Source of the DNA: a virus
Taxonomy: Duplodnaviria > Heunggongvirae > Uroviricota > Caudoviricetes
Length of the DNA: 45,074 bases
IMG/VR virus record: IMGVR_UViG_2908567220_000008
Location: 1-45,074 of that record
Reading direction: 5' to 3' (one strand)
The translations under genes were made by a program, and so were the position numbers. The notes below the pieces were generated by a model that had not been told where the DNA came from, did no database searches, and saw only the letters and a list, made by a program, of their open reading frames with translations. This document shows, piece by piece, positions 1-10,420 of this stretch (the stretch's first letter is position 1; every line of letters starts with the position of its first letter).

Positions 1-1260
1 TCATATTCCTATCGCCATGCCATGGGGCATGGATGGGGCAAAGTCCGATAATTTCTGGTTCAACATAGCAATCTGATCGCTGCTGCTGTCGGCCATCCAG
101 GCGCCGTAAACATTGAAAACCATCTGGGCGCTGGCGTGTCCCATCTGGCTGGCAATGAAACTCGGGTTGGCCCCGGCAGACAGCGACCAGCAGGCGTAAG
201 TGTGTCTCGACTGATACGCCTTGCGGTGCCTTAAACCTGACCGTTTAAGCGCCGCATCCCATGAGTCACCAACTGAATCGGCTTTGTACAGGTAACCTAC
301 GCTGCCACTGTTTTTAACCAACTGAGGATTGAACACAAATGTACAGTCGTGAATGACCGTTCGGCCATACTCCCGCAGTTGTACCTCAACCTGATACTGC
401 CTGCCTAACCTGGTCATTTCCGCCTGGTTCCTCAAAGCGTCAATGGCTGGCTTGATCAGGTGAACGACCCTGTCGGTACCGGCTTCGGTTTTTGGTAGAG
501 TGAAATCACCGAGTTTCGTATAATTCCGGCGTATGGTCATCGTTCCAGTTTTCAGATCTATGTCTTCCCATGCGAGGGATACCAGCTCGCCGTGACGTAA
601 TCCTGTGTATACCGCAATTGACCACAGGTTTTTCGTTTGCTGATGCTTGCAGGCATCTATGAAGCGAACGAATTCATCACGTGTGAGCGGATCTGGTTCT
701 ATCCTGGCCCTCTTTAGCGGCTTGATGCCGTTAAACGGGTTTTCACTCACATAGCCATTATCAACAGCAAACTGAAACATACCCGCGATCGTGGTCATGT
801 AGTAGTTTACCGTCACCACACTCAACCCTTTATCCCCCGCCAGCATATCCTTCCTGATATAGAGAAGCTCTTCTCTTGTCACAGACGAAACCAGCTTATT
901 CGCGCCAACCCTCGGCAGCATGCTTCTCACTACCGATTCGTACCTGTTTATGGCATTAGCGCAGATCTCCATCCGTTTAAGCTCAAGCCATTTTTCAGAC
1001 AGATCTTTTACGGTGATATCTTTCGTCCCGATGCCGAAAGTTTTCAGATTTGGCGAGTTGGGGAATTGGGCCGCATAGTCAAAGGTCCCCATGCGGATAG
1101 CGAAACAAACTGACGTTCTCAGCTCCCCGGCCACCTTCCTGTTTTTAGCGGTGTCAGGGACACCGAGGTTTTCCCTGACACGCTTACCTTTAAAAATGAA
1201 CCATATGCGGAGTGACTTTCCGTGGTTCTCAACGCCCGTTGGGTATGATTCTTTACTCAT
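1..1260 (-). CDS. int: Tyrosine-type phage integrase (complete; stop codon at 1-3)
   Basis: 419 aa ORF with ATG at 1260; C-terminal region has the R..H..R..Y catalytic layout of tyrosine recombinases (HTYACWSL, final Y in VYGAW). Sits at the prophage edge next to an excisionase-like gene. Confidence 0.9.
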   Translation of the reverse strand: MSKESYPTGVENHGKSLRIWFIFKGKRVRENLGVPDTAKNRKVAGELRTSVCFAIRMGTFDYAAQFPNSPNLKTFGIGTKDITVKDLSEKWLELKRMEICANAINRYESVVRSMLPRVGANKLVSSVTREELLYIRKDMLAGDKGLSVVTVNYYMTTIAGMFQFAVDNGYVSENPFNGIKPLKRARIEPDPLTRDEFVRFIDACKHQQTKNLWSIAVYTGLRHGELVSLAWEDIDLKTGTMTIRRNYTKLGDFTLPKTEAGTDRVVHLIKPAIDALRNQAEMTRLGRQYQVEVQLREYGRTVIHDCTFVFNPQLVKNSGSVGYLYKADSVGDSWDAALKRSGLRHRKAYQSRHTYACWSLSAGANPSFIASQMGHASAQMVFNVYGAWMADSSSDQIAMLNQKLSDFAPSMPHGMAIGI

Positions 1261-1768: not shown

Positions 1769-1987
1769 TCAGCGCTCCTTTATATATCCGTTCAAAATAC
1801 CTATCTCCACATAGAGATGGCTTGGCGTTAACCCAAGCTGCTTTATCAGCGGCATGCATCCGTTGAGGATCGGTCGTGATATCTCGTCACAACTCAAAGC
1901 GGGGGATGAACGACGCTTTGCCTTAACCTCATCGTTAGCCCTGCGCGCGATGCTTCTGAGCGCATTTTTCTTTTCTTCTGGCGTCAT
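1769..1987 (-). CDS. Hypothetical protein
   Basis: 72 aa ORF tightly packed in the operon; its ATG overlaps the stop of the upstream gene (ATGA). Confidence 0.5.
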   Translation of the reverse strand: MTPEEKKNALRSIARRANDEVKAKRRSSPALSCDEISRPILNGCMPLIKQLGLTPSHLYVEIGILNGYIKER

Positions 1988-2829
1988 ACGCCCCCCATAT
2001 AAGCGCGAATGAAAGCCGCAGCTGCCTTGGCGTTTATAGCGTTACCGTACCCTTTCAGGCGGCCGACGCGGTTGCTGCTTGCCACTCTTGCCACCCCGGG
2101 CTCGACTCGTCCCATGCGTGCGGCAGCCCCATCAACCAGCGGGAATGTGCCGGGTTCAACTGGACGCCATTTTCCATCTCGACAAAAGAGCCAGTCCGCA
2201 TCTCGCCAAAAACCGTTAACCTCAAGGGCCCGATAATCCCCGCGAAGTCCTGCAGGCGCTGTTGAGTCTTGCTCCCGCCCTGGCGCCCGGACGTTCCCGC
2301 GCCGGTCACTGATGACGCTGTAGGCGTTGGCCACCCAGTAGGCCCGCTCTCTGATGTGCGGCGCACCGATGCCCGCTGACGTAAACGGCACAAGCCCGAA
2401 GGCGTATCCCAGTCCTTCCAGGTCTGCTTGTACAAGGTCGAACCAAGCATTTGCGTTACCGCTTGCAACCTGTTCGCCAAAGACATGCTGAGGTCTGCGC
2501 TCGCTGATGAGATGGAAGAAGTGGGGCCAAAGGTGCCGCTCGTCAGCAAACCCATCTCCTTTGCCTGCCGCGCTGAAAGGCTGGCACGGGCAGGAGCCAG
2601 TCCAGACCGGGCGATCGTCAGGCCATCCGGCGAGGCGGAGGGAATGGGACCAGACGCCGATACCGGCGAAAAAGTGGCACTGGGTAAATCCTCTGAGGTC
2701 GTCAGGTGTGACATCTTCAATACTCCGTTCGTCAACTTCGCCAGGGGCGATATGCCCGGCGGCTATGAGGTTACGCAGCCACTGCGCCGCGAATGGGTCA
2801 ATCTCGTTGTAGTAAGCCGCCGCGCTCAT
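1984..2829 (-). CDS. DNA (cytosine-5)-methyltransferase, orphan
   Basis: FAGIG (motif I) and PCQPFSAAGK (catalytic PCQ motif IV). Start taken at the ATG at 2829, which overlaps the stop of the upstream methyltransferase; the ORF track extends to 2862. No restriction endonuclease partner seen. Confidence 0.85.
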   Translation of the reverse strand: MSAAAYYNEIDPFAAQWLRNLIAAGHIAPGEVDERSIEDVTPDDLRGFTQCHFFAGIGVWSHSLRLAGWPDDRPVWTGSCPCQPFSAAGKGDGFADERHLWPHFFHLISERRPQHVFGEQVASGNANAWFDLVQADLEGLGYAFGLVPFTSAGIGAPHIRERAYWVANAYSVISDRRGNVRAPGREQDSTAPAGLRGDYRALEVNGFWRDADWLFCRDGKWRPVEPGTFPLVDGAAARMGRVEPGVARVASSNRVGRLKGYGNAINAKAAAAFIRAYMGGV

Positions 2830-3482
2830 GCTGCCTCCGTCTTCACAACATCGATGGCGCATCCAGGTATCAGCTCAACTGAAGCGGTGGCGCACTGGTT
2901 ACCCCAGTGACTCCAGCCTGGCGCTGCGCTGCGGCTGAATAACTCAATCCGCGGCACGTCGCCGTAGAGCAGTTCCAGGCGGTGCCGAACTTCCCACGGT
3001 TTCTCGCTGTGCGCGCCGAGCGGGCTGTAGACCACCTGCTTAATTCCAGCGTGCTTGCGTTCCAGCCCGGCGCCGCGGGTGGCGATCAGCACGTCTTCGG
3101 TATTGGCGCGGGTATGGTTGCCACCGTTCATGCGCGTCTCGGCATTCAGCTGGTCGAGGAAGTCGTAAAAGTTGGTCACATTTCCCTCTGCCAGAGCCTT
3201 GGTAATGCGCAGCTCGGCTAGCTGATTCAACTTCACCCAGGTGAAACCCTTCATCGTGCGAACCGTAAAGCCCCAGGCTTCAGCCAGCTCGATCGCCTCC
3301 TGGTTGTGGGTGCCGGTGTACCACATCGCCAGCACAGCGTTATCCGCGGCGAGCTCCCACACCGGGAGCCGCTTCATATCGAGCAAGCTCATGGTGGGAT
3401 AGTGATCGACGGCGGCACCGTTGCTGATCGTGTTCCCGTAAGACCAGGCCGGGTCAGCATAGATAAGTGAGTAGCGGTTCAT
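2826..3482 (-). CDS. MT-A70-family N6-adenine DNA methyltransferase, orphan
   Basis: 218 aa with N-terminal IYADPAWSY (DPPW-type catalytic motif). RBS agagg upstream of the ATG at 3482. Confidence 0.8.
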   Translation of the reverse strand: MNRYSLIYADPAWSYGNTISNGAAVDHYPTMSLLDMKRLPVWELAADNAVLAMWYTGTHNQEAIELAEAWGFTVRTMKGFTWVKLNQLAELRITKALAEGNVTNFYDFLDQLNAETRMNGGNHTRANTEDVLIATRGAGLERKHAGIKQVVYSPLGAHSEKPWEVRHRLELLYGDVPRIELFSRSAAPGWSHWGNQCATASVELIPGCAIDVVKTEAA

Positions 3483-3637
3483 TGCGCACCTCTTTTCGTG
3501 TCCAGCTCTTCAGCCAGCCGCTGAGCCTTTAACGGGTTTCTTACCACTTCACCAGATGGCATTAGCCAGCCACGATGGAGGACGGAGTACATGCACTTCA
3601 CTTTTCCTACGGTTATGGCGTCGCGGTAATGTTTCAT
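3479..3637 (-). CDS. Small hypothetical protein (52 aa), not in the ORF track
   Basis: Hand-translated [52 protein letters not shown]. Its ATG overlaps the exonuclease stop and its TGA overlaps the methyltransferase ATG. Confidence 0.4.
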
Positions 3638-4314
3638 TTCCACTGCTCCCCGAAGGTGAAACCGATCTCCGACAGCGATTCGTCCATCTTCTCGATGAAC
3701 TCCGGCACCATTTCGTTGAAGTCGGACATGTATTTGTCGTCGCGCTCAACAACCACGTGATGAATGCCTTCTCGCTTCATGCGAGGGTCATAATTCGCGA
3801 AATACCAGGCGTCCTTCCTGGTTACCCACATGCTGAATTGCACCTGGGCCATGTAGGCGGATTTGATAGCCTCGAAGCCGCCAAGCCGGAACTTCATGAA
3901 GTCGCGAGAGGTGAAAGGGCATTTCAGCTCAAGGCCGCGGCCATCACTGCACAGGCCGTCTGGTGAGCAGGCGGTGCGCATACTTTCGTCACGGAAAAGG
4001 ATCGGTGACTCCGTTACCTTCACGTCGGTGGTGAACTCAAACAGGGTTCGAGCGTCGGCCTCATACTGTTTTCCCCAGGCCAGCGCCTTGGCGTTAACTT
4101 CCGGCGCCGCGCCGGTGCATACCTCTGCGAGCAGCGTGTGGAAATAAGACATTTTCATGTCAGTCCACTTGGTGCCTGATCTCGGCTTCGAAATGACGTT
4201 ATGGACTTCCGAGGCGGTGATCACGCCCAGGCGTAAGCGGTGCCAGGATTCATCTCCCTGTTCAACGCGGGTAACGTCAATGCCAGTTCGTTCGAGGATA
4301 ATTTCTGGTGTCAT
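3634..4314 (-). CDS. YqaJ-like (lambda Exo-type) recombination exonuclease
   Basis: 226 aa; paired with and overlapping a RecT gene; sequence resembles YqaJ viral recombinase-family exonucleases (recalled). Confidence 0.8.
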
Positions 4315-5156
4315 GCTGCCACCTGCGCTTTTTTCTGGAGGAAGCTAAAGCCTTTCTGCGCTTCTTCTTCGGTGAGTTGTGATGCCTGGAAAATGTCACG
4401 CTTGAAGATGTTGCTGCACAGAGGCAGGAAGTCCTGCTCCCAGTCCTTATTCAGGGACGTCAGGAGGTCGGTAATTGCCTGCAACGTTTCCTCACTGGCC
4501 ACCAGGGGGAGCGCCTCTGTCGTGGTTCGCGGCGTTACGTCACGCGCATCAACTTCCAGTGTTTTACCTTCCATCTCTTCGGCAGTGGGCTGCTGGCCAA
4601 TTTCAGGCCACGCCTTACGCAGAGCCTGAGCCTCGGCACACTTCGCCAGCTGGCCATAGGGGCGCTTTTTCCACATTGCGTTTGGCGCGGTAGTGTCGCG
4701 GCCGGCGGTTGCGTAGTTCTCAACCCAGTATTCTTTCGCGCTGAATTCGACGATCTCCCCGCTGGGCATGCGCTTGCTGACCGTGTACTTGCACCATTGA
4801 GGCACGGTCACTTCAATACCGGTAAGCGTCAGAGTGACGTCCGGGCCGAACTCTGGTTCTTTTGCGCCAGCGTAAGAACCGGAGCGATCGGCCTGAATCC
4901 GATAAAGCCCGATGCCAGGCATAACCACATCGCGCCACTCGCTTTTTCCCGACTTCGAGTCCTTAACGCTCATTGGCACCAGATGAACGGGCTTAAGAAG
5001 CGGATCAAGGTTTCTGGCCCGGCAGTAGTCCAGTGCCATCATCACCGACTCATCCTTGGCGCCAGGGTAAATACTGTTTTTGAGGGCGCTCCAGGTAGCG
5101 CCGTCAATACCTCTCTCAGCAAGAGAGCCGGCTGTAATCACAAGTTCGTTAGCCAT
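4311..5156 (-). CDS. recT: RecT-family single-strand annealing recombinase
   Basis: 281 aa with RecT/Bet-like sequence, immediately upstream of the exonuclease. Confidence 0.85.
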
Positions 5157-5463: not shown

Positions 5464-6435
5464 TCAGTAACTGATACCGGTATGGGGAATGCGGCCGTCT
5501 TTAACCGCTGTAAGCACCTCGATAGCCTGATCCCGAGTAAGGCTGGTATTGGCCAGAAGAGCTTTGACGATTTCAGTGCCTACAGCCTTGCGGTGCTTAA
5601 CGTCGGCTTCGCGGCGAGCCTGCTCATCGGCTTTACGTTTCTCCTCAGCCAGGCGGGCCTGTTCGCGTTGCTCTGCCTCGCGGCGGATGCGATCGGCTTC
5701 TTCCTGAGCTTTGCGGCGCTCCGCTTCGATAGCGGCCTGCTTGTCAGCCTCAGCTTTCTTCTCGGCTGCAATGCGATCTCGCTCTGCCTGCTCAGCTTGT
5801 GCTTTCAACACAGCTTCGCGATGCGCCGCTTCTTCACGTTCACGCTGTGCGCGCTGCTCAACTTCTCGGGCTGCTGCGGCGGCTGCCATTCGCTTAATTT
5901 CTTCTTCATGGGCAATGCGCTGGCGCTCAGCCTCAGCTGCTTTATCTGCCTGCTCTCGGTCGAAAGCGTCATTCATCAGCATGGCCATTTCGTGGTCAGA
6001 CTCAATCCGAGCTGCCAGCTGCCGATCGAACTCTTCATTCATGGCCAGTGCTTCGACGTGAAGGGCGTTCATGGCTTCTTCGGCCTTAATGCGTTCCTGC
6101 TCCGCCTCCCATTCGGTCAACGGGCGACGCACTTCATCTTTCAGTGCATCGAGACGCTCACGGACAACGCGGCGGCTTTCATCAATCTGCTTTGGCAGCG
6201 CCTTCAGCTCAGCGACCAGGGCTTTACCTGCGTTGTCGATGTAGGTTTTAGAGCGCGCGACCTTGTGAGCCATGGATGCGATAGCATCGCGGCCTTTTTT
6301 GGTGGTCACGTCCGGCACCAGACTGCGAGCCTCTTTTTCGATCGCTTCGATAAGCGGATCGAGTTGGTCGTTATTGGTGAAAACCGCCATCGCGTTCTTT
6401 TTCTCGATGACGACTAAATCCATTATTTCGCTCAT
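5464..6435 (-). CDS. Hypothetical coiled-coil protein, Ala/Glu/Arg-rich
   Basis: 323 aa; central about 150 residues are low-complexity charged repeats (AEAERQRIAHEEEIKRMAAAAAARE...). Confidence 0.6.
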   Translation of the reverse strand: MSEIMDLVVIEKKNAMAVFTNNDQLDPLIEAIEKEARSLVPDVTTKKGRDAIASMAHKVARSKTYIDNAGKALVAELKALPKQIDESRRVVRERLDALKDEVRRPLTEWEAEQERIKAEEAMNALHVEALAMNEEFDRQLAARIESDHEMAMLMNDAFDREQADKAAEAERQRIAHEEEIKRMAAAAAAREVEQRAQREREEAAHREAVLKAQAEQAERDRIAAEKKAEADKQAAIEAERRKAQEEADRIRREAEQREQARLAEEKRKADEQARREADVKHRKAVGTEIVKALLANTSLTRDQAIEVLTAVKDGRIPHTGISY

Positions 6436-6717: not shown

Positions 6718-6820
6718 TGAACACCCCCGTAACGTGCAGAATTTTGATAACAACAGCCGACCAGATAACGCCGCAGATCAGCAGGCAGTAAATCAGTGAA
6801 CGAATGCCTTGTTTGCTCAT
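6710..6820 (-). CDS. Small hydrophobic peptide (36 aa), putative membrane protein
   Basis: Hand-translated MSKQGIRSLIYCLLICGVIWSAVVIKILHVTGVFNG; one predicted TM helix. Its ATG overlaps the stop of the upstream small ORF. Confidence 0.4.
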   Translation of the reverse strand: MSKQGIRSLIYCLLICGVIWSAVVIKILHVTGVFNG

Positions 6821-6924
6821 TTGCCACCCCAGCACGGATAGCTAACTGCGAGAACAGCAACCAAAAACGGAACGACCTTTAACCAAAAATTACGCCATGC
6901 AGGCTTGTCTTCTTCGCGGATCAT
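6817..6924 (-). CDS. Small hydrophobic peptide (35 aa), putative membrane protein; first gene of the leftward operon
   Basis: Hand-translated MIREEDKPAWRNFWLKVVPFLVAVLAVSYPCWGGK; strong SD (aaggtgaagag) ahead of the ATG. Confidence 0.4.
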   Translation of the reverse strand: MIREEDKPAWRNFWLKVVPFLVAVLAVSYPCWGGK

Positions 6925-7006
6925 CTCTTCACCTTTGCCTTATCGCGGCTAACGGGACGTTTTGACTTCACCCCGGCGTTGCCGGTGTTGTTTGGATGAG
7001 ATGATA

Positions 7007-7082
7007 ATAGCAATGAGTATTAACCATAGCAATACGTATTGTTATTATTTGATAGCTATTGCTATTAAATCATTGATAGCTA
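7007..7082. promoter_or_regulatory. Operator-like repeat cluster (putative OL-type operator and promoter region)
   Basis: ATAGCAAT at 7007 and 7026; near-palindrome ATAGCAATACGTATTGTTAT at 7026-7045; ATAGCTATTGCTATTA at 7052-7067; TTGATAGCTA at 7073-7082. The same ATTGCTATTA core recurs between cI and cro. Confidence 0.4.
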
Positions 7083-7144
7083 AATGAATTTATTTTTTCC
7101 TATTGTGCTGTTATGCTCAAAAAAACGCCAAAAAGGGTAGCGCC

Positions 7145-7348
7145 ATGTCGAATGAGGATGAGTTTTTCGCAGAGATGCACCCGCAGATTGCGCAGGTCAT
7201 CGGGATAGCGGTTATGCAGCTGCTGGTTGAGAGGCGCGAGCCATCAAGAGAGGCGCTGATAGAGATGATTCAGGTGTTGTGGCAGGGTGACCAGGTAGAT
7301 CTGGCAGTAGAGCTGGCACTGGATGTGCTGATGCTGCGGGAAGAGTAG
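7145..7348 (+). CDS. Hypothetical small protein (67 aa)
   Basis: ATG at 7145 (MSNEDEFFAEMHPQ...), in the same frame as the longer track ORF 7103..7348. Plus-strand gene convergent with the kinase module. Confidence 0.5.
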   Translation: MSNEDEFFAEMHPQIAQVIGIAVMQLLVERREPSREALIEMIQVLWQGDQVDLAVELALDVLMLREE

Positions 7349-7354
7349 GGCAGT

Positions 7355-7377
7355 AAAAACCCGGCGCGGTGGCCGGG
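7355..7377 (-). terminator. Intrinsic terminator for the kinase/DUF3037 transcription unit
   Basis: GC hairpin cccggc-gcggtg-gccggg (7360-7377) followed on the minus strand by a U-run (plus-strand aaaaa, 7355-7359), 17 nt past the stop at 7394. Confidence 0.55.
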
Positions 7378-7393
7378 TGCTGGCAACAGTTTG

Positions 7394-8212
7394 TTAGTTA
7401 AAATTAAGGCTTTTCCCGGCAGCGACTAACATATGATCGTAGTATTTAGACATATCTTCGCTACTTAGCAAGTTGAAGACATTGTCAGCATAACCTCCAA
7501 CCAAGTTAAGTTGCTGAGAGTGCGCTTTTTCCTGAGGTGTATCAGCAGCATAAACCACAAAAGTCTTCACGCAGTTATTCCACTTGGTCTTAGCTGCGTT
7601 TATTGTCACAGCTTTAAACGCTGACTCACCCATTTTTTGGCGATTATTGGAAATCCGTAGATCTAAGGTTTCAGTTAAATGATAAATTCCATTTTTTAGT
7701 AAAAGTTCAGCATAAAGACCTTCAGATTCAGAAAGCGGATACCCCTGAACCACTTTATGCTCGCTAATTTCCTTGAGATTCTTACCCATAACTCCTTCTT
7801 TTTCAAACCTATCCTTAAGCTCGGTAATAATTCTTTTTTGAGAAACTTCAGTTCTTTTCTTCGCTCGCTCAGGTGTTATGAATAATTTATTTAATTCATT
7901 GATTTTTAATTCATATTCACGTTCATTGGCAGCATGAAATGTACCTACGCTTGACAAGGCAAAGCTACCTTGGAAAAAGAGAGAAGCCTGTTCGATGCTT
8001 AAGCCAGAAGTTAAAATAGTCTCCAGTTGCTTCTGGCTATTTTCTAATGCTTCAAGCCCAAAATCATTTGTAATAGCTTTTAGTTTAGTAGGGGTTTCTA
8101 TGACGCGCACATCTGGGCCAGATGGCTTCATGACGACAAGGCCAACGTTGATTGTCTCGGCGCGGACAGGGTTCGGTGTTATTCTGACAATACTGTATTT
8201 ATATGTATTCAT
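7394..8212 (-). CDS. DUF3037-like protein (272 aa), partner of the HipA-like kinase
   Basis: N-terminus YSIVRITPNPVRAETINVGLVVM resembles the DUF3037 family (from memory, needs HMM confirmation). ATG overlaps the kinase stop (ATGA). Visibly AT-rich. Confidence 0.6.
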   Translation of the reverse strand: MNTYKYSIVRITPNPVRAETINVGLVVMKPSGPDVRVIETPTKLKAITNDFGLEALENSQKQLETILTSGLSIEQASLFFQGSFALSSVGTFHAANEREYELKINELNKLFITPERAKKRTEVSQKRIITELKDRFEKEGVMGKNLKEISEHKVVQGYPLSESEGLYAELLLKNGIYHLTETLDLRISNNRQKMGESAFKAVTINAAKTKWNNCVKTFVVYAADTPQEKAHSQQLNLVGGYADNVFNLLSSEDMSKYYDHMLVAAGKSLNFN

Positions 8213-9033
8213 TTCAGCACCTCCCCTCTAACAGTGTCGATTCGTTTCATTCTGCCGTCGCTTGACCACCAGGTTAGCAGAGCATCCCTCTGCAAAGGAT
8301 TGATCCATGCTTCCGGCATGTCTTCAAAAATCCGTTCTATCGTGCTAGAGCTAATTCTGGATAGCTTATCCAATACAGCTTCCGCAGGCGCTTTACACGA
8401 AACATCATTATATGTCAACTGCTTGATCGCTTGCCAGCAGTTTGTGGTGTTGTAGCCCATTGGTATTAGGGCTGCGTCGGTTTTGTTCGGCCAACCCATA
8501 ACCATAGCTGCAAGGCTGAAATCGAAGGCTTGGATAGTCAGGTTTCCATATCGGTTCTTAGTGTACAGATAGTTACCAATATGCCTATCAATATTAAATA
8601 CGAACTGATCGAAGGCGTAAACTGACCATACTTGCTTCCGTAGAATAGAAGGTCCGGACATCAATTCAGCGGCAAAGTTAATTTCTTCTTGTGGCTTACT
8701 CATGGCAGCCAGGTCATATTTTGATCCAAAAAAGTGCTCTCCTGTATCCGGGTCAATCAAAACCCTACAGGCCGGGGTAGGAAGCCCACTAAATTCAGCA
8801 AGTTTAGTACATAGCCATTCTGATGCTGGAATTTGCTTTGGGTGGGGAATCCCTGTCAAAGCGGATGCATCACCATCAGAAACCCCTTTTATTGCATACT
8901 CTAAACCGTCGGAGGCCATAACTGTATGCCTTAGGTGAGCTGTGCCCATTGCTGGCTTATAATCCACAATCTCAAGACTAAACAAGGGTTCTTGAATAGT
9001 AATGTTCTTTTCAGGTTGTGAGTCTTCTTCCAT
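8209..9033 (-). CDS. HipA-like / CtkA-like atypical kinase-fold protein (274 aa)
   Basis: FNIDRHIGNYLY matches the N-x-D-x-H-x-x-N catalytic-loop pattern of HipA-family kinases (E. coli HipA has D-x-H-x-K-N). AT-rich coding sequence. Confidence 0.6.
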   Translation of the reverse strand: MEEDSQPEKNITIQEPLFSLEIVDYKPAMGTAHLRHTVMASDGLEYAIKGVSDGDASALTGIPHPKQIPASEWLCTKLAEFSGLPTPACRVLIDPDTGEHFFGSKYDLAAMSKPQEEINFAAELMSGPSILRKQVWSVYAFDQFVFNIDRHIGNYLYTKNRYGNLTIQAFDFSLAAMVMGWPNKTDAALIPMGYNTTNCWQAIKQLTYNDVSCKAPAEAVLDKLSRISSSTIERIFEDMPEAWINPLQRDALLTWWSSDGRMKRIDTVRGEVLK

Positions 9034-9143
9034 TTTTATTCCACTAATTGATTAGTGATAGATTCCACCGGGTACTTCATTGCTGCTCTGAACTTAAGCT
9101 TTATTGCCCTTCTGGGCGGCGAGGAACCGCGAAGCGCTCTTAT

Positions 9144-9169
9144 CCATGCTTCCTGTACGTCTTCGGCAT
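9144..9169. repeat. Direct repeat copy 1: duplicated 3' end of the cI gene
   Basis: ccatgcttcctgtacgtcttcggcat matches 9347-9372 at 25 of 26 positions; on the minus strand it reads MPKTYRKHG-stop, the same as the CI C-terminus. Confidence 0.7.
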
Positions 9170-9200
9170 TACCAAAAACACATCGAACTACCGGTCTGGC

Positions 9201-9320
9201 TCACTCAAAGTCATCCCGCTCATCCTTCCGCTTGAAGAAAACTTTATCCAGCCTGAGCACTATCCCAACCAGTCCGATAATCAGCAAAGTAATGAGTATT
9301 GGGATAATCAGATCAGACAT
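9201..9320 (-). CDS. Small membrane peptide (39 aa) immediately downstream of cI
   Basis: Hand-translated MSDLIIPILITLLIIGLVGIVLRLDKVFFKRKDERDDFE; SD gaggaag ahead of the ATG; flanked by the 26-bp direct repeats. Confidence 0.45.
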   Translation of the reverse strand: MSDLIIPILITLLIIGLVGIVLRLDKVFFKRKDERDDFE

Positions 9321-9342
9321 GCTTCCTCTGCGTGCTAAGGCT

Positions 9343-10041
9343 TTACCCATGCTTCCTGTACGTCTGCGGCATGCTGCCGATCACCTTGCCGAACACGAAA
9401 ACACGATTCATTTCGTCTTTCTCGATCGGGTCCCAGGCTGCATAGCTCTTGTTATCTGAGATAACCAGCAGCTTGTCCTTCATCTTCTGCAGGCGCTTGA
9501 CGTGAGCAGTGTCGTCGTACAGGAAGGCGTATATCCCGTCGCCGTCGAAGCTCTTAACGCTGATGTCGACGAACAGCAGATCACCCGGCTCAATCGTGCC
9601 GGACATGCTGTCACCCCGGACGTTGATGATCCGGATGTTCTCAGCCTTACGCCCATCGAACATGTGCCGGGCTTCAGCTGGCTCATACTCAACAGAACGG
9701 AGAATCTCGACGAACTCCTGGTTCACGATGCCCGGCCCGGCACTAACCATAAGGTCCAGCACATCAATCCTGAATGCATCAGTATCCTGGCTTTTAACCT
9801 GGGCAGCGCGAGGGAGCTGGCCGTCATCGCGCATCGGTCCATTTCCGGTTGATAACCATTCAGACCTGACGCCCAAAGCATTAGCTATCTCGACAATTTT
9901 TGTTGAACCCCTGGCGTTTCCACTCACCAGGCGCCAAATGGTTGGCTGAGCAATACCTGAGGCCTTCGCAAGCGCCCCTTGTGACATTCCAGCCGAAGCC
10001 ATGGCCTCGTTTAAACGATCTGCAAGAGTTTCTTTTTTCAT
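9343..10041 (-). CDS. cI: CI-type phage repressor (HTH_XRE plus S24 LexA-like autopeptidase)
   Basis: N-terminal HTH (MSQGALAKASGIAQPTIWRLVSG) and C-terminal S24 signature (VRGDSMSGTIEPGDLLFVD ... VKRL). Start taken at the ATG at 10041; the track ORF begins at a TTG at 10104. Confidence 0.85.
   Translation of the reverse strand: MKKETLADRLNEAMASAGMSQGALAKASGIAQPTIWRLVSGNARGSTKIVEIANALGVRSEWLSTGNGPMRDDGQLPRAAQVKSQDTDAFRIDVLDLMVSAGPGIVNQEFVEILRSVEYEPAEARHMFDGRKAENIRIINVRGDSMSGTIEPGDLLFVDISVKSFDGDGIYAFLYDDTAHVKRLQKMKDKLLVISDNKSYAAWDPIEKDEMNRVFVFGKVIGSMPQTYRKHG
9347..9372. repeat. Direct repeat copy 2 (authentic 3' end of cI)
   Basis: ccatgcttcctgtacgtctgcggcat, encoding the last residues of CI (MPQTYRKHG). 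Confidence 0.7.
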
Positions 10042-10152
10042 AATCTCAAATTTATACGCTTGCGTATTACTGGTCAAAACACGTTTTGCTATTGCTAAAA
10101 CCAATACGCATTGCTATTATCATTTTGCACCAATACTTATAGGAATTGGAAC
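10042..10152. promoter_or_regulatory. Divergent cI/cro operator-promoter region (OR-like)
   Basis: Intergenic region between divergent cI and cro containing GCTATTGCTA (10088-10097) and ATTGCTATTA (10110-10119) next to CAATACG. Confidence 0.5.
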
Positions 10153-10380
10153 ATGACGAACAAAACCATCCAGAAGGCAATTGATATCGCTGGCAGTCAG
10201 AAAAAATTGGCCGATCTGTGTGGCGTAGCGCAGCCGACAGTTTGGCGCTGGCTGCATGGCGGCGGAATTGACGCTCGCTATGTAATGAAAATCGTGTCTG
10301 CGACCAACGGCAAGATTAAGGCGGCAGAGATCAGGCCTGACCTTGCTCAGTTGCTGAGCGCGCATTCACCGGCCGCCTAA
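10153..10380 (+). CDS. cro: Cro-like HTH regulator
   Basis: 75 aa from the ATG at 10153; HTH QKKLADLCGVAQPTVWRWLHG; divergent from cI. Confidence 0.75.
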   Translation: MTNKTIQKAIDIAGSQKKLADLCGVAQPTVWRWLHGGGIDARYVMKIVSATNGKIKAAEIRPDLAQLLSAHSPAA

Positions 10381-10420
10381 CCAGCGGCCATTCCAAACAA
10401 CACCAGAGGAAGTATCACAA

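Follow-up and report, generated by a model that had tools for sequence, protein, structure and literature searches.

A non-coding relic of the cI 3' end as a probable crossover site for cargo exchange behind a Klebsiella-type prophage repressor

The 45,074-nt window analyzed here comprises positions 1-45,074 of the IMG/VR virus record IMGVR_UViG_2908567220_000008 (Caudoviricetes). It is a lambdoid prophage with an immunity operon of the Klebsiella type. Behind the cI repressor gene of this operon lie a gene for a 39-residue membrane peptide, a second copy of the last cI codons, and two cargo genes for a HipA-like kinase and a DUF3037 protein. The second copy of the cI end, called the relic below, is probably a recombination scar that also offers a short stretch of homology for crossovers, by which cargo, or the peptide unit, is exchanged behind the repressor. 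The region between cI and N as a hotspot of mosaicism and defense (PMC8585504) and recombination at module borders are known already, and the locus is a well-resolved new example of both.

The 26-mer at 9347-9372, which is the end of cI, recurs at 9144-9169 with one mismatch. No further copy with three or fewer mismatches occurs in the 45-kb window, and 0 were found in 100 dinucleotide-preserving shuffles. Inclusion of the Gly and stop codons brings the full repeat to 30 nt, and positions 9140-9169 and 9343-9372 are identical at 28 of 30 sites. The duplicate (copy 1; the true cI end is copy 2) is preceded in frame by a TAG six codons upstream (FDVFLV-MPKTYRKHG) and is therefore non-coding. A preliminary description of the window had reported a 26-bp duplication of the cI end, matching at 25 of 26 positions, in which copy 1 reads MPKTYRKHG followed by a stop codon. 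Both statements are borne out.

The surroundings of the repeat were compared in 147 Klebsiella and E. coli prophage loci that carry the 30-mer. Their sources were IMG/VR, assemblies with a gene for the kinase or the peptide, and the window itself. The cI end sits directly on cargo in 64 loci (class A), is followed by the peptide without a relic in 25 (class B), and is followed by the peptide and then a relic in 44 (class C). Nine loci combine a diverged peptide allele with a relic (class C2), and in three a different small insert precedes a cI-end relic of a third kind (class D). The two copies match closely in class C and are spaced 203 nt apart in 44 of 44 loci. This constant distance, together with the same 31-nt spacer between peptide and relic, indicates that the junction of peptide DNA with a cI 3' end arose once.

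Named phages show three of these arrangements. Thirteen GenBank phages of Klebsiella and Escherichia have the cI 3' region in common and differ in their breakpoints. Phage 6 LV-2017 passes from cI into unrelated DNA. Phage 2 LV-2017 and ST11-VIM1phi8.2 have cI and the peptide without copy 1, with a ParA-like gene next in ST11-VIM1phi8.2. Phage 2b LV-2017 and ST101-KPC2phi6.1 have cI, the peptide, and copy 1; homology stops exactly at the copy 1 stop codon, and RexA/RexB come directly after copy 1 in ST101-KPC2phi6.1. Homology of the window to Klebsiella phages with other cargo ends at 9141. The older state may be the one in which cI is followed by the peptide and then the terminator, and copy 1 is absent.

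Unrelated repressors also precede the unit and its two repeats (L014/L015, L146, and six listed E. coli genomes, H22-H27), and copy 2 is non-coding there as well. The six E. coli genomes match the window at 9141-9384 only. A cassette with both repeats lies at 2501-2744 of locus L155 (E. coli Ec1117, NZ_CP126602.1), behind an unrelated 219-aa repressor of the LexA family, and RefSeq has no annotation of the 39-aa gene in that genome. Part of the region is matched by 192 of 5426 complete E. coli genomes, and NZ_CM184352.1 matches all 321 of the 321 bases queried (window 9100-9420) at 99.7%.

Cargo types were defined as clusters of the DNA after the last stop codon, of which there are 49. The relic precedes 24 of the 49, including RexAB, BstA-like, ParA-like, DUF6932, and PIN-like cargos, and 22 clusters directly follow the stop codon of a full-length cI. 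Nine cargo types occur after the relic and also, without the peptide, after a repressor-end sequence, and the two forms are identical from the first base past the stop codon. The peptide-less junction is the stop codon of a full-length cI in eight of these nine types; the ninth type (L098) has a non-coding relic at this point, downstream of a heterologous repressor. These are the simpler cI junctions without insert that the preliminary description had proposed to seek, and the base-exact agreement in nine cargo types upholds its view of the duplicated cI 3' end as a recombination footprint. The unit may have been gained, as the term insertion implies, or lost, since loss of the 203-nt unit by recombination between the repeats gives the same pictures.

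The last bases of the repeat locate the exchange more closely. The final six, comprising the Gly codon and the stop, come in six versions. For eight of the nine shared clusters, the relic and the peptide-less locus agree in these six bases (permutation p = 0.0006). Copy 2, ahead of the peptide, ends in GGGTAA in 43 of 46 cassette loci. The Gly and stop codons thus covary with the cargo while copy 2 is constant, which places the likely exchange point inside the repeat, upstream of the Gly codon. We infer statistically, and not from a witnessed event, that crossovers fall within the 26-30 nt repeat. Near the other end of the repeat, the Q/K codon is mosaic: among relics, 33 loci have AAG, 20 have CAG, and 2 have AGG, and one genuine cI (L082) has AAG. 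Nearly identical cargo is found with the unit in one and without it in the other of the loci L052 and L077, so at least some gain or loss events are recent.

Remnants of a second repressor occur at the same border. A degenerate copy of the 3' end of a lambda-type repressor (CAGTGGCCTGAAGAGACGTTTGGTTGA, QWPEETFG-stop) lies 2-7 nt past the stop codon of cI, relic, or peptide in 26 of the 147 loci (for example L025, L029, L033, L045, L097, and L136). These 26 account for 26 of the 34 matches to the lambda-type end in the 2.9 Mb of collected sequence. The true form of this end is found in the repressor of L153 (about 2320-2346), and the kinase leader of the window itself does not have the fossil. 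Lambda-type fossils at cargo borders imply that cargo carries pieces of earlier repressor ends, and that these can be stacked.

The variable slot runs from the repressor end to the conserved terminator of the operon (Table 1). Conservation with other phages resumes exactly at 7378, the first base of this minus-strand terminator, and the same terminator is found 37-2006 nt past the relic or peptide in 80 loci. Six "empty slot" loci (L003, L038, L042, L114, L117, and L133) have 37 nt between the peptide stop codon and the terminator, and the operon there therefore consists of cI, peptide, and terminator without cargo. Consensus scans from the cI stop codon to the kinase detected no promoter-like or terminator-like site. 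With no such site before the kinase and a terminator past the cargo, the peptide and cargo are probably transcribed together with cI.

These arrangements are accounted for most simply by two steps. In a single illegitimate joining event, DNA past the peptide gene would have become fused to the final nine codons of a cI immediately followed by cargo. From then on, direct repeats of 26-30 nt, one in the relic and one at the true end of cI, would constitute a short-homology crossover site. If the relic crosses over with another phage's cI end, and a second crossover falls in the long conserved DNA beyond the terminator, the cargo would be swapped. Exchange between the two repeats within one genome would remove the 203-nt peptide unit, and the reverse exchange would place the unit before any cargo. 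The catalysts would be the phage RecT/YqaJ pair or host RecA. A minimum of ~30 bp of homology is given for recombination that depends on Red or RecA (PMC2327257). RecT and YqaJ are both encoded in the window, and a system for homology of ~30 bp is thereby at hand, with a presumptive role at this site. We regard a more ambitious version as doubtful. It holds that the 26-30 nt repressor end and its fossils are a selected docking sequence, an integron-like platform run by RecT/YqaJ on which heteroimmune prophages of Klebsiella and E. coli stack and swap tiny membrane peptides and defense systems, whatever the repressor. The 39-aa peptide, which thousands of genomes carry, often without annotation, would then be a new exclusion or defense factor expressed in lysogens.

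The kinase and DUF3037 genes, which overlap by 4 nt, behave as one of these cargos. The peptide unit precedes them in fourteen loci, the window among them (L006-L015, L113, L145, and L146). The same cargo occurs without the peptide behind a different 227-aa repressor, preceded by a degenerate relic only (...TACAGGAAGCATGGGTAA; L147/L149/L152). L148 encodes a kinase 90% identical to that of the window, directly behind a DNA-diverged allele of the same repressor, and the kinases of L153 and L154, 53% and 47% identical, lie behind lambda-type repressors. Among species-representative genomes the kinase has relatives at only one distant locus, in Rosenbergiella. The preliminary description had suggested that the kinase module came in with the peptide. 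The survey does not support this part: the unit precedes 24 cargo clusters, it is free of cargo in six loci, and the kinase occurs free of the peptide. Because the pair is found without the peptide elsewhere, it probably did not arrive with it, and the kinase/DUF3037 pair is an independent, interchangeable cargo.

Three variants of the kinase leader (window, L008, and L147 types) occur among the loci; they have diverged strongly, and their flanks are nearly identical. The leader in the window contains no promoter-like or terminator-like site and no unusual RNA fold (z = +0.39). Two open frames in this region were considered and rejected. Read-through of the peptide TGA would enter a 55-codon open frame that extends to the kinase start, a length expected by chance in an estimated ~7% of cases; the frame is probably non-coding because differences between leader variants are mostly non-synonymous. 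The other is a 17-aa ORF that starts at an ATG in the relic. Its length and frame vary by cargo type, and one kinase-leader variant is frameshifted.

Judged by its sequence, the peptide gene is genuine, conserved, and independently mobile. In the 78 peptide-bearing loci the conserved form has 39 codons in all 30 DNA alleles, which encode 14 protein variants. The alleles have a pN/pS of 0.13, and 26 of their 42 variable sites are third positions. The CAGAGGAAGC-ATG upstream of the peptide is invariant in 78 of 78 loci, even where the sequence further upstream is divergent. The small-peptide gene with a ribosome-binding site that the preliminary description had placed between the copies is accordingly a real ORF under purifying selection, with a single hydrophobic helix. 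A three-residue N terminus is followed by the helix (residues 4-22; mean Kyte-Doolittle value 3.14) and a 17-residue tail. The tail holds six K/R and six D/E, and all six K/R of the peptide are C-terminal of the helix. This distribution suggests that the peptide spans the inner membrane once, its charged tail facing the cytoplasm. A 49-aa reading (9201-9350) that starts within the last cI codons was discarded. Its start ATG is changed to ACG or ATA in many relatives that retain the cI His codon, and 39 aa is therefore the conserved form. The 49-codon version of the ORF is sometimes annotated.

The exact peptide sequence was found in 8140 index blocks of public assemblies. Pfam, PHROG, NCBIfam, and PADLOC contain no family for it, and two very large protein searches for remote homologues returned only its own narrow family. 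The homologues are "hypothetical protein" entries in Klebsiella pneumoniae, K. aerogenes, and Escherichia, and a literature search for the peptide sequence found nothing. Other tiny single-helix peptide genes, of 23, 30, and 32 aa (e.g. MKIGIVFPVVVFIVAVAFMAWFVFGGYVTPGE), also stack behind the repressor in the same slot (L019 at 1336-1434; L121; L017; L032; L035/L052/L077/L123/L124). One of them is followed by a third kind of cI-end relic, and the 32-aa peptide has no PHROG family.

The peptide is most likely made in lysogens along with cI. Our best guess for its role, made with low confidence, is a lysogen-expressed protective factor that acts in superinfection exclusion or a defense-related process, rather than a toxin. 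It could instead be a membrane-damaging peptide of the type I-toxin or holin kind that serves as the killing arm of abortive infection, possibly with the downstream cargo in the manner of RexB. It is small, hydrophobic, and single-helix, as type I toxins are, and its short N terminus, one hydrophobic helix, and charged tail resemble the build of Fst/Ldr-type toxins. It occupies the rexAB position, ahead of RexAB, BstA-like, and kinase cargos. Its ribosome-binding site, however, is strong and invariant, and the gene lacks the signature of a separate promoter or antisense RNA, so that the peptide would probably be made constantly in lysogens. Consensus scans for the promoter of an antisense-RNA antitoxin found no promoter-like site on either strand of 9034-9372, although weak promoters could escape them, and there is no Rfam family. 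A dedicated partner role is disfavored by the occurrence of the peptide alone, without cargo, and ahead of 24 unrelated cargos. A toxin is thus improbable.

Several points weigh against the relic as a scar and crossover site of single origin. We infer recombination at this site, the enzymes, and co-transcription with cI from sequence comparison, and gain and loss of the unit are indistinguishable by this means. The loci were fetched by a match to the repeat, peptide, or kinase and are a biased sample. A peptide-less sequence joining this cI allele exactly to the kinase leader has 0 matches in IMG/VR, and the nearest peptide-less kinase cases are L148, with its diverged allele, and L147, with another repressor and a degenerate relic. 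The function assigned to the peptide is a guess, as it has no homologue of known function. Nucleotide diversity is 0.028 in the spacer and 0.032 in the first 24 nt of the relic, compared with 0.113 at ORF third positions. This low diversity could reflect some further function rather than a young origin. A young single origin, followed by later swaps of the ORF for other alleles, explains it. That classes A and B do without the spacer argues against a general function, although it may have a local one.

The diversity values speak for the view that the relic and the 31-nt spacer are a selected element, such as a site for RNA processing or stability or a signal for translation of the cargo, and that recombination there is incidental. 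Spacer and relic show about the conservation of replacement sites in the peptide ORF, whose third positions are four times as diverse. The relic contains AGGAAGCATG, a Shine-Dalgarno-like sequence with an ATG, and the same 18-30 nt are retained as non-coding DNA behind unrelated repressors. Against this, the same kinds of cargo are found where spacer and relic are both absent, in loci with cI directly on cargo and in loci whose peptide has no relic after it. The small ORFs that start at the relic ATG vary in length and frame among cargos (17, 11, 3, and 36 aa), and Q/K/R and Y/H codon changes are tolerated. The interval 6800-10400 has no Rfam match, and the fold of 9025-9375 is no better than that of shuffles (z = +0.39). 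Selection on the relic for such a function is accordingly unlikely. Transposition of the peptide gene into the cI end as a small mobile element with target duplication would yield direct repeats around a short insert, but it is barely credible here: 26-30 nt is far above the usual length of a target-site duplication, there are no terminal inverted repeats around the insert and no transposase (the sole ORF is the 39-aa peptide), the last bases of the right-hand repeat follow the cargo rather than the left-hand copy, 25 loci have the peptide without a second repeat, and the unit is confined to the repressor 3' end. A recombination scar that offers homology for further crossovers remains the interpretation we favor.

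The features of the window are collected in Table 1. A 323-aa protein encoded at 5464-6435 on the minus strand is very rich in E, A, R, and K, appears coiled-coil-like, and has no Pfam family. It is kept in many related prophages beside a Gam-like gene, and one phage record labels it "membrane protein involved in colicin uptake". Just past the operon terminator is a convergent 81-aa ORF (7103-7348, plus strand) without a Pfam family, whose counterpart in related phages is a gene of 58 to 67 aa. A second terminator-like hairpin is found at 7124-7144 on the minus strand.

Table 1. Features of the immunity operon and neighboring genes in the 45,074-nt window.
Feature	Position	Strand	Evidence or remark
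Integrase	1-1260		Left end of window
Two adjacent DNA methyltransferase genes (C-5 cytosine type and MT-A70 type)	1984-3482	-	Between integrase and recombination genes
YqaJ-type exonuclease	3634-4314	-	Pfam YqaJ, 1e-30
RecT annealing protein	4311-5156	-	Pfam RecT, 2.2e-27
Intrinsic terminator of cI operon, downstream border of cargo slot	7359-7378	-	Stem ACCCGGC/GCCGGGT and T-run
Cargo gene 2, DUF3037 protein, 272 aa	7394-8212	-	Pfam DUF3037 (PF11236), 5e-8; PADLOC PDC-M66B, 6e-7; phrog_5137, 2.7e-46
Cargo gene 1, HipA-like kinase, 274 aa	8209-9033	-	Pfam HipA_2 (PF20613), 28.4 bits against a cut-off of 27 (marginal); phrog_3162, 2e-38; weak PADLOC PDC-M66A match
Kinase cargo leader	9034-9139	-	Moves with kinase
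Repeat copy 1, non-coding relic of cI 3' end (MPKTYRKHG*)	9140-9169	-	Upstream border of variable cargo
31-nt spacer from peptide stop to relic	9170-9200	-	Near-constant sequence across cassette-bearing loci
39-aa single-pass membrane peptide gene (MSDLIIPILITLLIIGLVGIVLRLDKVFFKRKDERDDFE)	9201-9320	-	pN/pS, hydropathy
22-nt spacer with peptide Shine-Dalgarno AGAGGA (9324-9329)	9321-9342	-	
Repeat copy 2, genuine last nine cI codons and stop	9343-9372	-	
cI repressor, 232 aa, ending MPQTYRKHG*	9343-10041	-	Pfam Peptidase_S24 (7.6e-18), HTH_3, Phage_CI_repr; PHROG transcriptional repressor, 2e-67
cro	10154-10380	+	Divergent from cI; then cII and O/P-type replication genes

The locus gives a base-exact view of the exchange of defense cargo in the best-known prophage hotspot, with the repressor 3' end as the probable crossover site and the terminator as the other border. 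Fossil repressor ends record past swaps, and the history of cargo exchange thus becomes readable from sequence. The comparison also draws attention to a 39-aa membrane peptide that is very common, often lacks annotation, and is probably produced in lysogens of Klebsiella pneumoniae, and it presents the HipA-like kinase/DUF3037 pair as one swappable cargo among many.

The peptide, the cargo, and the slot each have counterparts among known systems. HK97 gp15, P22 SieA, and T4 Imm are small prophage membrane proteins that exclude superinfecting phages. Like them, the peptide is a predicted small inner-membrane protein that is prophage-encoded at a position expressed during lysogeny. Unlike them, it is much shorter, at 39 aa, and has no sequence similarity to any known family.

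The cargo pair resembles DS-6, since renamed HipAD, in which a HipA-family kinase and a DUF3037 protein provide kinase-dependent defense of E. coli against phage (PMC13092281). As in DS-6/HipAD and PDC-M66, two overlapping genes encode a HipA-family kinase and then a DUF3037 protein. The matches to PDC-M66A/B are weak, and the likeness to DS-6 is drawn from its published description. DUF1829, which is described for DS-6B, has no match in the partner protein here at E <= 5.

The region between cI and N is a hotspot of mosaic diversity and defense, and its genes presumably use the repressor promoter (PMC8585504). As at the rexAB position of lambda, or where bstA follows cI, same-strand cargo lies directly behind a repressor with HTH and S24 domains. 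The cargo likewise varies between related phages while the flanks are conserved, and relatives carry RexAB and BstA-like cargos. The locus differs from the hotspot in general in that its upstream border is base-exact, being the last 26-30 nt of the repressor or fossils of them, in that a tiny peptide cassette is interposed, and in that the downstream border is one conserved terminator.

The nearest model for the exchange itself is "linker" recombination at module boundaries, as in lambdoid mosaics and with Red/RecT. The linker idea reportedly goes back to Susskind and Botstein and to comparisons of HK620 and HK97. Both cases have a short conserved sequence at the junction of interchangeable modules and a phage-encoded annealing recombinase, and the length of the repeat is near the ~30-bp minimum (PMC2327257). 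Here, by contrast, the repressor gene supplies the boundary from its own coding 3' end, of which the relic is a non-coding copy, and the relics are stacked.

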